The notes below the pieces were generated by a model. The model saw only the letters and a program-made list of their open reading frames with translations, ran no database searches and was not told where the DNA came from. From a virus (Duplodnaviria; Caudoviricetes), in IMG/VR virus record IMGVR_UViG_3300017759_000081, positions 1 through 24,173 of that record: a stretch of DNA of 24,173 bases. One strand, given 5' to 3'. A program made the position numbers and the translations under genes. Each line of letters opens with the position of its first letter. The stretch's first letter is position 1. Of this stretch, positions 5,074-8,481 are shown one piece after another.

Positions 5074-6288
5074 TCACTCTGCAATCATCTTGTAGGAGAT
5101 TGTATTATACGCCACCTGACCATAGTCTTTGTGATATGTGATGACATTCGCCTCTCTACCACTGAGCCAACCGCCCCGGCTACTGTAGGCATCAGCACTT
5201 GCGAGTGTCCGGTGTTGCTCTACAACCATTAGGTTTGTCTCTTTTTTATCGATAGAGTGATAATGACCCATATGCGCGTAAGCGTGCTCTGTACGACCAA
5301 AGACCTCGCGGTACTTGGCAGCAAATACGGTATCGACGTTTGCGACCTTACGCTTATGTCCGTGATGGAAGAATAGCGCTGTCTTGCCAAACTCGTAGCA
5401 GTAATAAGTGTCAGCAGAGTTATCGATAAACACCCTGGGCTCGTTCTCATACAAAGCCATCAAGAGCTCGCGCATCCATATAGCAGAGTAGGGATCGTGG
5501 TTGGCGTCACACCACTTGACGTGTACGTGCTTGTGCTTTTCTAACAGCATCTTAATGACCTGCCGGGTAACTCTAATCGTTGCCCTGACAATCTTAAAAG
5601 CACGCGAGTCGGCATCAAGGAGATGTTTAGAAGCCGGAGTCAATGGCTCTAGATCAAAATGCTGGAAGTCGCCAAGTTGAGCATAAACAGCTGTGTCAGC
5701 ATCCGGGCTTATCCTAATCGCCTCTGCAAACCATTTAACCAATGTGTCCTCAGCAATCTTCAAGTCCCAATTATCGTTCTGAGTTTGACCAGAGGCGTTC
5801 ACTTCGTCGCTGTCGGCCAGCATGCCCATATGGTAGTCAGTTATCACAAAACAGTTGCAAAGCTTCTCAGCGTCAATCTGAGGGGCTTGTACGGGGTTTG
5901 CAGGCTCAATCTCCTCGGTCATGCCCTTAACAATCTCTCGCATGACCTCTATCTGCTGTTGCGCATCCTGCTGCGTCTTCACCCACGTCATAATAGGCTT
6001 ATTCTCAGCATCGTAAAGGATCGACTCGCCCCTGATGATTTGACCTGGGGGCGCCGGGTTTACCTGATCGTGCTTAGGAGAATAACCTTGTAAAGCGCTC
6101 TTTTTAACGACAGCTCTCAGCCTATCTTTTATGGCCTGCCGATTTACGTTTAAAATCTCCGCCGCACCTTTTATTGATGAGCCTTCAACCCAACATAGTT
6201 GCACGATCTCTCGTTGTTTATCAGTTAGGTCGATTTTGTCGAGTATCTCAAGCGCTTGGCTTGATGTGTAAGCATTCCCGTAACTCAT
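5074..6288 (-). CDS. Calcineurin-like metallophosphoesterase with N-terminal sigma4-like HTH
   Basis: Motifs ITDYH, LGDFQHFD, ANHD, HHGH, GHYH; N-terminal LTDKQREIVQL...SIKGAAEILNVNRQAIKDRL HTH. Confidence 0.8.
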   Translation of the reverse strand: MSYGNAYTSSQALEILDKIDLTDKQREIVQLCWVEGSSIKGAAEILNVNRQAIKDRLRAVVKKSALQGYSPKHDQVNPAPPGQIIRGESILYDAENKPIMTWVKTQQDAQQQIEVMREIVKGMTEEIEPANPVQAPQIDAEKLCNCFVITDYHMGMLADSDEVNASGQTQNDNWDLKIAEDTLVKWFAEAIRISPDADTAVYAQLGDFQHFDLEPLTPASKHLLDADSRAFKIVRATIRVTRQVIKMLLEKHKHVHVKWCDANHDPYSAIWMRELLMALYENEPRVFIDNSADTYYCYEFGKTALFFHHGHKRKVANVDTVFAAKYREVFGRTEHAYAHMGHYHSIDKKETNLMVVEQHRTLASADAYSSRGGWLSGREANVITYHKDYGQVAYNTISYKMIAE

Positions 6289-6306: not shown

Positions 6307-6690
6307 TCACCGGCCAAACCTCACATCTACGTCATGAGTTTCAGCTAGGTGTTTAGCAATGACTCGAAACACGTCGTCTACGTCGTGCATCTTTAACTGC
6401 GTCACTGACTTCTTACCCAAAAGAGCCTGCTGTACAGGGCGCCACATAATCTCTTTTACGAGCTTGCCTGTAGGCTCTATAGGTAGCGTTACCACTTGCT
6501 GCATGTCATGTCCCGAGGCCGCGAGGGTCCGGGCTATGTCGTCGCAATAGGCGTGGATTGCCTTGTTTTGTTGTGATGTTAGTTTTGGCTCGAGAATTTC
6601 GTACACCTTGCCAGAATCTCGATGCTCCATGATGTACTGACAAAACTGCTCTGCTTGATACTTATTGTTAACAATCCAGCGCTGACTCAT
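6307..6690 (-). CDS. NinB/YbcN-like recombination protein
   Basis: LTSQQNKAIHAYCDDIA and KSVTQLKM resemble the NinB motifs RSxxQN...W/H and STxxL; located upstream of ninG. Confidence 0.6.
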   Translation of the reverse strand: MSQRWIVNNKYQAEQFCQYIMEHRDSGKVYEILEPKLTSQQNKAIHAYCDDIARTLAASGHDMQQVVTLPIEPTGKLVKEIMWRPVQQALLGKKSVTQLKMHDVDDVFRVIAKHLAETHDVDVRFGR

Positions 6691-7082
6691 ACTTCTACCC
6701 TATCTCCATCAAAGCTCATGTACTGGCCGTATGTAGCCAGACAATGCTGTCGAAACGATTCGGATTTCATAAAGTCGTGAGTTAAGCAATCTATGCTAGT
6801 CCAGGCTCTAAGGCCAATTTTATCACGAACTTGGTTATGAGGTATTTGGGCTGCAAAAGGGCTTATACCGCGCTCCTCCTTGCTTGCTTTATTACACCAA
6901 GCAGCTATGAATCTTTTGCATCCAGCACGAGTTTTGCGTTTCTTTGGGTTGGCATCAGCCCACGCAGCCATCGCTGAGAGCTCACGATACACGTCTATGT
7001 CTGGGTAGCTTTTCTGTAGGTAGATAGAGTATTCATCGTCTATCTCGAAGTACGTACCGTCATTTAAAATAATCATCCACAC
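6687..7082 (-). CDS. Stand-alone C-terminal domain of a phage replication initiator
   Basis: ILNDGTYF...YPDIDVYRELSAMAAWADANPKKRKTRAGCKRFIAAWCNKA matches by eye the conserved C-terminal module of phage replication (O-like) proteins. There is no N-terminal HTH, and an in-frame TAA lies at 7119-7121. Confidence 0.7.
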   Translation of the reverse strand: MWMIILNDGTYFEIDDEYSIYLQKSYPDIDVYRELSAMAAWADANPKKRKTRAGCKRFIAAWCNKASKEERGISPFAAQIPHNQVRDKIGLRAWTSIDCLTHDFMKSESFRQHCLATYGQYMSFDGDRVEV

Positions 7083-7362
7083 TTTCCCTTTTGATGTCGC
7101 TACGCGACAAGCAATCCGTTAGTTAATAATGACGAGCTGTAATTACCGTATCGAATCTTGTCGTCTGTCCCCGTTACCTGCTCTCGGCACTAGGGGGCGC
7201 ATCATGAAGAGGGTCAACTCCGCCTCCGAGGTTCTTTGGTTCCTCGGCCTAACGCCCGGTAATTTCTGACTAAGGAAGGAGACAAGAGTAGTCTAGAGGT
7301 GTCCAGGGGTGTCCAGAGACGTCCCACTGAGTGTATACTACCCTTGTCTTGTTTCTTAGCCG
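7083..7362 (-). ncRNA. Candidate structured leader RNA / replication-origin region
   Basis: 25-position stem 7268-7292/7337-7361 (20 Watson-Crick pairs); multibranch domain closed by AATTACCG (7141-7148)/CGGTAATT (7257-7264) with inner stems; hairpin 7095-7109; no ORF of 60 aa or more. Confidence 0.55.
7287..7326. repeat. Four degenerate tandem 10-bp repeats (iteron-like)
   Basis: AGTAGTCTAG / AGGTGTCCAG / GGGTGTCCAG / AGACGTCCCA. Confidence 0.55.
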
Positions 7363-7368
7363 AGTACG

Positions 7369-7398
7369 AGACTACCTACTCAGACATACCCTAGTCAA
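7369..7398 (-). promoter_or_regulatory. Putative promoter for the structured leader and rep operon
   Basis: TTGACT-N18-TAGTCT; predicted start at about 7362, which is the base of the long stem. Confidence 0.45.
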
Positions 7399-7411
7399 GT
7401 AGGACTCCCGT

Positions 7412-7437
7412 AGCCCCTCTTTTGAGGGGCTTTTTTT
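7412..7437 (+). terminator. Intrinsic terminator on the plus strand
   Basis: AGCCCCTC-TTTT-GAGGGGCT followed by a T-run; no T-run in the minus orientation. Confidence 0.8.
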
Positions 7438-7444
7438 GTACCTT

Positions 7445-7476
7445 AAAAAAGCGCACACCCGTTATATGGACGTGCG
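7445..7476 (-). terminator. Intrinsic terminator closing the upstream early operon
   Basis: CGCACGTCC-ATATAAC-GGGTGTGCG (two G-U pairs valid on the minus-strand RNA) followed by CTTTTTT. Confidence 0.6.
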
Positions 7477-7519
7477 GTTTATCACGAAAAATCTGATACC
7501 CAATGTATGGGCAACAGAA

Positions 7520-7798
7520 TTACCACTGGTTAGCGATCTTAAACTTCTTACGTGGGTAACGACTTTCACCGCCATTGTTCCACTTGAAGTAAATAGTCCT
7601 GCCGTCCTTCTTCCAGCAGCCAGACTCGGTATTACCCTCGCCGTCGTACCAGTAGGCTCGCTGCATGTCGCCAGCAATAATGCACGAGTCATCCGTTAGG
7701 ACAATCTCGCCGCCATTTTTCAAGCCTTTGTAGGCTTTAGTGTCAGCGAATGCTTGTACAGCCAATAGGCTGATAACTACGGTAATTAAATATTTCAT
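7520..7798 (-). CDS. Small exported (signal peptide) protein, 92 aa
   Basis: Start MKYLITVVISLLAVQAFA|D with AxA cleavage site; two Cys; AAGGGAG RBS. Confidence 0.75.
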   Translation of the reverse strand: MKYLITVVISLLAVQAFADTKAYKGLKNGGEIVLTDDSCIIAGDMQRAYWYDGEGNTESGCWKKDGRTIYFKWNNGGESRYPRKKFKIANQW

Positions 7799-8019
7799 TT
7801 TTTCTCCCTTACCTCCGTAGAGGTTTTTGTTTTGAGCAAGTGATACGTAGCGTAACGCTTGCCGTTTCGTACAGTTGTCTCGGTGTGTATCTTGTGGCCT
7901 CGCATACGAAGCTCTTGGATACGTGCTGCTAACCGAAAACAACCAAACTTATCCAAAGCATCCAGAGCCGTTATTGGCTCCTTCCGCAAGTGGTTAAGTA
8001 TCTGCGCCGAATGACTCAT
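7795..8019 (-). CDS. Winged helix-turn-helix protein (HTH_39-like)
   Basis: QILNHLRKEPITALDALDKFGCFRLAARIQELRMRGHKIHT...YATYHL family signature; GGAGG RBS. Confidence 0.8.
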   Translation of the reverse strand: MSHSAQILNHLRKEPITALDALDKFGCFRLAARIQELRMRGHKIHTETTVRNGKRYATYHLLKTKTSTEVREKK

Positions 8020-8237
8020 TTTTCTTCCTCCCAATTTAAGAACTCGTCGATGGTGTAGCCAAAGTAATTAGCTAACTGCGTAAGGCGCGACAGAGCCATA
8101 TCCTCGCTGTTTTTCCATCGATAAATAGTCATAGGTGTGACCTGCAGCTTCTTAGCCATGACGGTGCCCAAAGGGTCACCGCATGAGTCTAAAAGCGCTG
8201 TAAGTGCTGCACCTGGGGTTTTAGAAGGGTATGTCAC
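8016..8237 (-). CDS. XRE/Cro-like HTH transcriptional regulator
   Basis: MAKKLQVTPMTIYRWKN...RLTQLANYFGYTIDEFL; GTG start after GGAGG. Confidence 0.8.
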   Translation of the reverse strand: MTYPSKTPGAALTALLDSCGDPLGTVMAKKLQVTPMTIYRWKNSEDMALSRLTQLANYFGYTIDEFLNWEEEK

Positions 8238-8481
8238 TAGTGTCAGCCTCCTGTTCAAATACCTGACGAGCCTGCTGCATACCCTTTGCATGAACCTCGT
8301 CTTTAAGCTTAGTGCTCAGCCGCATGTAGCTGTTGCCGTTCTTATCCTTGGCTATCCAAGCATTAAGCCAGTGATCGGCGCCATCAGCGTTCATGTAGCT
8401 GCCCTTGTAGTCAGGATCAGTGTCCTTTGACTTTTCGTTGTTCTTAAACAGAACACCGCGATTGGTGTTGTCATACTCCAT
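8221..8481 (-). CDS. Small single-stranded DNA-binding protein
   Basis: GVLFKN...PDYKG...AW beta-rich domain with the acidic SSB-type tail DTSDIPF; next to the annealase gene. Confidence 0.7.
   Translation of the reverse strand: MEYDNTNRGVLFKNNEKSKDTDPDYKGSYMNADGADHWLNAWIAKDKNGNSYMRLSTKLKDEVHAKGMQQARQVFEQEADTSDIPF

Follow-up and report, generated by a model that had tools for sequence, protein, structure and literature searches.

In the replication of ColE1 a structured transcript forms a persistent hybrid, which RNase H cuts and Pol I extends, and RNA I inhibits the process (PMC5043065, in the sections accessible to us). Large structured motifs tied to replication regions are also described from plasmids: ARRPOF, PAGEV and GEBRO span 223-349 nt, the ARRPOF region replicates independently of Rep, and whether the motifs act as RNA or as single-stranded DNA was left undecided (accessible sections of Weinberg 2017, PMC5737381). 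DnaT and DnaD bind single-stranded DNA and help to load helicase at origin-independent structures (PMC5778457, accessible in part). Replication organisers of the lambda O/SPP1 type (phrog_1032 and the Phage_rep_org_N, HTH_36, DUF6291, Lin1244_N and DUF1376 fusions) have the same C-terminal domain and the same gene position as the protein described here; in our case, however, the N-terminal DNA-binding domain, the iteron linker and the adjacent P/DnaC-like loader are absent and a structured element lies upstream instead. Elsewhere among phages, the R-loop origins of T4 are primed by a transcript, T4 encoding its own replisome, and we know of no such conserved fold at those origins. The put RNA of HK022 exerts leader control through RNA alone, is far smaller and is not known to be tied to initiator loss, and the attenuators of pT181 and pIP501, in which antisense RNA switches a hairpin and U run, control a full Rep.

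The present locus resembles ColE1 (PMC5043065, as far as accessible) in a structured transcript from a host-type promoter and a convergent short RNA against its 5' end, both predicted here, and in having no origin-binding initiator. Unlike ColE1, it belongs to a tailed phage, its element measures ~180-290 nt as against 550 nt, it encodes an initiator C-terminal domain of its own, and the predicted antisense overlap is ~17 nt as against ~110 nt for RNA I. It differs from ARRPOF, PAGEV and GEBRO, which are plasmid-borne, also in its link to truncated initiators, of which the accessible sections of PMC5737381 make no mention.

The window, that is the whole stretch of 24,173 nt that was analysed, is part of a tailed-phage genome. 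It has genes for terminase, portal and major capsid protein, and its early region is lambdoid-like, with the order SSB, Cro-like, HTH_39, gap, ORF, NinB-like, exonuclease-like and NinG. The ORF is found at 99% identity on a 34.4-kb contig, contigs 99% alike are present in seawater and marine runs, and the closest cultured capsid is that of Octadecabacter Antarctic DB virus 2 (75.5%). As an earlier note on this DNA had stated, the gap is the longest non-coding stretch: it covers 7083-7519, 437 nt as against 97 nt for the runner-up, when minus-strand ORFs of at least 50 aa are counted and an overlapping 76-codon ORF (7462-7692) is omitted as a second-frame ORF. That note proposed that a structured RNA or single-stranded DNA in the gap replaces the origin-binding half of an initiator, the small protein encoded downstream recruiting the host helicase under antisense control. 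The genes concerned are the following.

8016 to 8481, minus strand: Cro-like gene and SSB, the commonest upstream neighbours of the element
7795 to 8019, minus strand: winged-helix HTH_39 protein, found upstream, downstream or not at all in relatives
6687 to 7076, minus strand: stand-alone C-terminal domain of phage replication initiators, 129 aa from ATG 7076 (131 aa from GTG 7082)
6307 to 6690, minus strand: NinB-like gene, the usual downstream neighbour (weak Pfam match, E 2.4e-4, below cut-off)

A split initiator made of HTH_39 and the ORF was considered and is weakened; HTH_39 is not a fixed partner, since its position varies or the gene is absent. The exonuclease/phosphoesterase-like protein of the same region (phrog_704, 5074-6288) carries an N-terminal HTH resembling sigma70 region 4.

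The ORF itself has no Pfam or PHROG match. The 131-aa frame described earlier is present, but its start is probably ATG 7076 and not GTG 7082, since most homologues, including most of the 61 of nearly the same length, begin at MIIL. A profile search with the ORF family returned 8,994 representatives at E<=0.001; 72 of the best 150 of these have at least 193 aa, and 37 of the 72 carry an N-terminal Pfam domain of initiator type, a few of them below cut-off (Phage_rep_org_N 13, DUF6291 13, Lin1244_N 8, HTH_36 2, DUF1376 1). Full-length initiators with the same C-terminal domain are also encoded by cultured phages (322 aa in Vibrio VPBES; the 272-aa replisome organiser of Ruminococcus phiRgIBDN1), and at locus L487 a 263-aa full-length form is followed by a P-like loader gene. 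By homology, and as the note had it, the ORF corresponds to the C-terminal domain of an initiator and lacks the DNA-binding half. An N-terminal origin-binding HTH of the lambda O type is absent here, the in-frame TAA at 7119-7121 being present as previously described; no repeat family that could represent iterons lies within 6687-7082 beyond a two-copy 10-mer; and there is no adjacent P/DnaC-like loader or helicase, the neighbours being the NinB-like and exonuclease-like genes.

Residues ~1-75 of the ORF are weakly DnaD/DnaT-like. With the predicted structure (pLDDT 86.6), the DnaD-like 2zc2 ranked second (Z 4.2, rmsd 3.5, 67 aligned) and DnaT 4ou6 ranked seventh (Z 3.9, rmsd 3.6, 62 aligned), both within background and tied with unrelated rows. 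Neither Foldseek on the PDB nor a PDB sequence search gave a match, and BFVD and ESM Atlas returned unnamed phage proteins only. The likeness to the PriA/PriB/DnaT primosome at the phiX174 pas and to Gram-positive DnaD is a weak fold resemblance with scores within background; unlike those proteins, the one described here is phage-encoded and has no PDB or Pfam sequence match. We infer for it a DnaD/DnaT-like function.

Upstream of the ORF lies the core of the structured element, here called type I, with these parts, all on the minus strand.

7086 to 7264: core element, likely RNA, ~180 nt, in which P1 closes a junction of P2 (bearing P3 and P4), P5 and P6, with a pseudoknot (PK1), a 3' hairpin and an AAAAGGG tail
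7257 to 7264: 5' strand of P1, pairing with 7141-7148; two-sided change in 6 of 7 pairs, 99.6% paired
7226 to 7247: P3 hairpin with an A-rich loop; two-sided change in 5 of 6 pairs
7206 to 7221: P4 hairpin with the conserved loop UUGACCCU, a candidate for a second pseudoknot (PK2) with the AGGG tail
7169 to 7195: P5 hairpin, whose loop pairs with 7134-7137 (PK1); all 3 PK1 pairs covary, 100% paired
7150 to 7168: P6, a short stem with the most conserved bases of the alignment (AUAG...CGAUAC)
7095 to 7109: 3' hairpin ahead of the tail, in relatives often with a cGNAg, cGNNAg or CTTG loop
7086 to 7092: AAAAGGG tail, in the position of a ribosome-binding site here and 60-90 nt from the next start in a distant clade

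Support for this fold was taken from covariation, since the folding energy alone is unremarkable (z -1.4 for the minus strand; -2.5 for the plus strand with its terminator). In a close set of 32 copies the 36 pairs are kept at 98.9%, 11 of them with two-sided changes. In a diverse set of 36 copies (63% mean column identity) P1, P3, P4, P6 and PK1 are 98.7% paired, with two-sided change in 18 of 23 pairs, whereas slid pairings reach 32-43%; none of 500 shuffles was as high, a figure that is not a probability because the helices were chosen from the same data and the sequences are related. P2 and P5 were counted in the close set only, as MAFFT shifts both by two columns between clades in the diverse set. 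P1 and PK1, however, are kept through many different sequences. PK2 was not accepted, the candidate resting on a single variant (an ACCU/ACUU loop with an AGGU tail in L017, L021 and L485) and hence on too few events. One-sided changes of G-U type place the fold on the sense strand. When a model is built from the close copies alone, its matches include the gap of distant phages, where the protein has ~50% identity to a different query, and these matches fall on the sense strand without exception. The core is bounded at P1 because in L340 (2190-2505) the element overlaps the 3' end of the upstream ORF and has no 5' module.

An 18-nt pattern recovered 88 viral loci, a gapped pattern recovered 120, and the collection is estimated to contain ~450; 148 distinct type I core sequences were obtained. 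At the nucleotide level no cultured phage carries a type I copy. A genome scan for the host gave 8 pattern matches, 7 of which were rejected by the model, and L392, a 5.8-kb phage-like contig in an Opitutales MAG, was not accepted as host evidence. Comparison of the upstream region with Rfam 15, which the note had called for, gave no match in the window at the gathering threshold and only weak, terminator-driven ones at E<=10, and no family matches the diverged type I loci or the type II and Vibrio loci described below. Neither homology to ColE1 RNA II/RNA I nor a covariance-model match to ARRPOF, PAGEV or GEBRO was found in these scans, the latter families being, we presume, included in Rfam 15. 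A group I intron was considered and rejected: there is no Rfam match, and the nested P1/P2 topology differs from the group I consensus, a P3-P7 core with a G-binding pair plus a P4-P6 domain. The element is likely an RNA and would form a compact, strongly covarying pseudoknotted class absent from Rfam. No paper on it was found; the part of the supplements of Fremin 2023 (PMC10690425) that was searched gave no match, and the motif may be among the unnamed candidates of that work.

The element is closely tied to the stand-alone domain. From 139 pattern loci with at least 1400 nt of downstream sequence, 7 cellular ones were dropped as chance matches; in 129 of the remaining 132 viral loci, which are partly redundant, the domain lies downstream on the same strand, near the N-terminus of ORFs of at most 171 aa. 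The exceptions are L049, where cargo genes run to the edge, L308, where such a gene was not seen, and L340. In the last, a temperate phage, the element (79.7 bits) is followed by a 123-aa ORF matching only positions 174-286 of the 383 of phrog_270, and so only the C-terminal half of that replication initiation protein. Together with the covariation, this linkage bears out the claim that the upstream structure is conserved with the ORF. Among loci found by the protein, type I is present in 65 of 80 close ones (the others having type II in 11, no upstream DNA in 3 and neither type in L177) and, at E<=0.01, in 67 of 80 distant ones, the remaining 13 of which end within cargo genes. L177 and L501 have the short protein and no type I match. 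Each of the near-complete genomes G001, G004 and G005 carries one copy.

By contrast, 0 of 80 lambdoid loci with full-length initiators have the element by either model. These controls are of another C-terminal type, with 0 copies of this domain, and for that reason a matched, blind set of 18 loci was fetched by a stretch of the protein: all 3 stand-alone forms of 125 aa have the element, and the 14 fused forms and a single 152-aa form are without it. Kinship could explain part of this split, as most of the fused-initiator controls belong to other phage lineages. Element and protein are often separated by cargo genes. Of the idea that the element stands in for the origin-binding half, two parts are supported, the half-initiator and the conserved fold; the adjoining ORF is often a cargo gene and not an initiator fragment. 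Varied cargo genes of 57-207 aa occur at the start-codon position behind the AAAAGGG tail, a hot spot of insertion ahead of the initiator fragment (L021, L024, L033, L041, L068, L081, L085). In the distant clade (L189-L265), 60-90 nt past the tail, an AT-rich tract precedes a highly conserved GGCGAGGCTTGCCGAG ahead of the ribosome-binding site, together a candidate unwinding element plus hairpin.

Other elements occupy the same position. In 11 of the 80 close loci a fold of ~250 nt and unrelated sequence, type II, sits in the same place behind the same 5' module (L126:1250-1495, L172:745-1010, L184:1735-2000 and L502-L528 are examples); of 25 type II loci, 10 have this protein downstream, 9 have a phrog_16 helicase there and 6 have neither. 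A third large conserved non-coding element (L105:1720-2167, L482:1900-2358, L483:3001-3342) occurs in the cultured Vibrio phages 1.122.A/B, 1.275.O and NF. Phages 1.122.A/B and 1.275.O have a stand-alone homologue and a gap of ~600 nt made up of a variable hairpin, a U run and a conserved core of ~400 nt; NF shares that core at 75%, and its 185-aa protein matches phrog_391 in the C-terminal part only. The third element, conserved in sequence, precedes stand-alone C-terminal domains of two families, and no plasmid match to the Vibrio element was found. The 5' part of the Vibrio gap (L105:1564-1700) is 72-82% identical to stretches of other Vibrio phages that bear a tRNA annotation (Und, Trp, Met). 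L177 (680-1080) has a gap of ~360-400 nt upstream of the same protein, with a terminator-like hairpin and an antisense TATAAT, that neither model matches; a fourth element type is possible there.

In the window and many relatives the core is preceded by a 5' module.

7445 to 7476, minus strand: terminator-like site of the upstream operon, in the closest relatives only (7476-7452 in the scan)
7412 to 7431, plus strand: terminator-like site with a T run (7412-7437 in the earlier note)
7369 to 7398, minus strand: predicted sense promoter TTGACT-18-TAGTCT, start near 7362
7346 to 7437, plus strand: predicted antisense RNA of ~90 nt, of which ~17 nt are complementary to the 5' end of the sense transcript; it includes a hairpin that spans the sense promoter, and the terminator
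7334 to 7339, plus strand: predicted antisense -10 TATACT, start near 7346
7300 to 7326, plus strand: three 10-bp phased repeats of lineage-specific sequence, covering the -35 region of the predicted antisense promoter
7270 to 7359, minus strand: optional 5' hairpin of variable sequence, then a pyrimidine/U run; mean z -3.8, 69 of 69 distinct relatives (mononucleotide shuffles)

The features that the note had described here are all present. Its back-to-back terminators were both found, in a scan that gave 7 terminator-like sites where 1.3 were expected; the long stem (7270-7295/7334-7359) has 26 positions, 81% complementary; and the phased repeats (TGTCCAG at positions 7300 and 7310, CGTCCCA at 7320) recur every 10 bp, with a lag-10 dinucleotide autocorrelation of 0.25 against 0.08 for shuffled sequence (69 distinct relatives). 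An inverted repeat, 6996-7015/7369-7388, was found as well and was set aside, as the promoter spacer varies among relatives. The convergent promoters emerge only from the comparison of relatives, a strict consensus scan of the window giving 0; the sigma70 matrix used was approximate. The plus-strand CTGACT-17-TAGTCT (7268-7296) is not conserved and was dropped in favour of the TATACT at 7334-7339. In the 5' hairpin TATAC is conserved, the reverse strand being TATAAT/TATACT-like in 108 of 132 terminator-bearing loci by a pattern set after inspection of the alignment. The predicted antisense body has a mean z of -2.2 (n=108), and the hairpin in the DNA across the sense promoter covaries and would be usable only by the antisense transcript or as a cruciform.

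In 26 of 171 loci, which are module-less, the best sense site has its sigma70-like -10 at 12-13 nt upstream of P1, while in most loci with the 5' module the best site is 86-125 nt upstream of P1; an A-run with hairpin occurs in 98 of 142 far-promoter loci as against 1 of 29 near-promoter loci. These conserved promoter positions favour an RNA. Contigs from 4 of 7 RNA runs have a depth of 3-12 and cover coding and non-coding sequence alike, and are hence uninformative on transcription. The antisense control proposed earlier finds its counterpart in a conserved, predicted convergent unit; that unit is optional, however, and absent from most of the distant clade. The module as a whole, with its variable hairpin, 10-bp repeats, convergent promoter and predicted antisense RNA, fits copy control.

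The window had been said to hold no phage polymerase, primase or helicase, and the near-complete genomes add none: DnaB_C had no match in any of 5 records rated at least 98% complete, and a PHROG scan of G001 (49 of 55 ORFs), G004 (59 of 68) and G005 (8 ORFs outside the window), in which many ORFs have no family, recognised no helicase, primase, polymerase or full initiator. A ColE1-type replicon has no origin-binding Rep, and none was seen here, the ORFs downstream of the element being of 171 aa or less and no full initiator being recognised in G001 and G004.

On balance we think it probable, if by no means assured, that the locus is an RNA-primed, ColE1-like origin with a phage-encoded DnaT/DnaD-like adaptor. 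This RNA-opened origin is favoured because of the covarying fold, its linkage to stand-alone domains, its absence beside full-length initiators and the lack of any other recognised replication gene. The element would be an RNA acting in cis as the phage replication origin and primer. Host RNA polymerase would start at or upstream of P1, and the fold would promote a persistent RNA-DNA hybrid near the AAAAGGG tail and the AT-rich tract; the hybrid would prime the leading strand, as ColE1 RNA II does, while the DnaT/DnaD-like protein would bind the displaced single strand and deliver it to the loader and helicase of the host. In loci with the 5' module, the convergent ~90-nt RNA, or convergent transcription itself, would limit initiation by switching the 5' hairpin and U run, with the 10-bp repeats as a putative operator for a phage HTH protein.

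Alternatively, the element could regulate the early operon in cis as its 5' leader and take no direct part in priming; it might then be an antiterminator comparable to HK022 put, or a translational switch under possible autoregulation by the small protein. It does lie directly behind a promoter at the head of a long operon with a variable first gene; in the close clade the AGGG tail sits where a ribosome-binding site would be, and it could form pairs with the loop of P4; 15 of the 25 type II loci are without this protein; and the 5' hairpin, U run and antisense RNA resemble plasmid attenuators. In the distant clade, however, 60-90 nt separate the tail from the next start, and that start has an SD of its own; a general leader is not expected to track the loss of the initiator DNA-binding half across C-terminal families, and the origin would be left unexplained in genomes with no other initiator. 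We regard a leader as unlikely.

It is also conceivable, though we hold it to be quite unlikely, that the sense strand of the DNA adopts the fold once transcription has exposed it, and that this acts as a single-strand signal for initiation or primosome assembly, read by the small protein with host primase or PriA, the transcript serving only to open the duplex. Covariation cannot separate RNA from single-stranded DNA (PMC5737381, accessible sections), and members of the DnaT family bind single-stranded DNA and load DnaB at the phiX174 pas hairpin (PMC5778457, accessible in part). In the relatives the loops of the 3' hairpin are mostly cGTAg (26), cGTTAg (9), cGACAg (9) and cGATAg (6), counted over redundant loci with a script that missed the CTTG class. 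Loops of these types are unusually stable in single-stranded DNA. Against such a signal, the predicted start site is at the 5' end of P1 in module-less loci, and the fold has a pseudoknot, multiway junctions and many pairs of G-U type, features that are more usual in RNA.

Very unlikely, in our view, is a trans-acting ribonucleoprotein of RNA and small protein, serving as an origin-recognising guide or as a decoy for the host helicase loader in place of a cis primer. The compact tertiary fold with its invariant unpaired bases, the conserved basic residues R49 and K50 of the protein, and the N-terminal fusion of the domain to a helicase-loader-like domain (phrog_2289) with no DNA-binding domain in P0130, P0160 and P0171 would suit it, but no terminator is conserved at the 3' end of the core in the alignments, and a specific RNA-protein pair is argued against by the occurrence of the same RNA with a different C-terminal family and of the same protein with unrelated RNAs. 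The place of the region between cro-like and nin genes and its phased repeats might suggest a lambda O-like gene whose coding N-terminus and iteron linker have decayed here, but this is contradicted by stops in all frames, single-base indels in relatives, strong compensatory change and conservation of the DNA where the protein is only 45-55% identical, and has next to no probability.

What is new here is the anatomy, a structured element joined to a half-initiator; the chemistry proposed for the RNA-primed origin borrows from ColE1 and from restart primosomes. More tentatively, and with rather less than even confidence, we suggest that a widespread class of tailed phages has replaced the DNA-binding half of a lambda O-like initiator by interchangeable pseudoknotted RNAs, of at least three unrelated folds, that open and prime the origin, that a small DnaT/DnaD-like adaptor captures the host helicase, and that the optional, variable antisense RNAs are determinants of copy control and incompatibility. 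The cultured Vibrio phages of the same layout make the design testable and are the best experimental handle. For structure work the element adds a compact, covarying, pseudoknotted class of likely RNA, and for genomics it may be a marker by which the origins of such phages can be located. It offers a possible answer to how replication starts in small phages in which no polymerase, primase, helicase or full initiator is recognisable, and an RNA standing in for a domain of an initiator protein would, if true, be a new replicon design.
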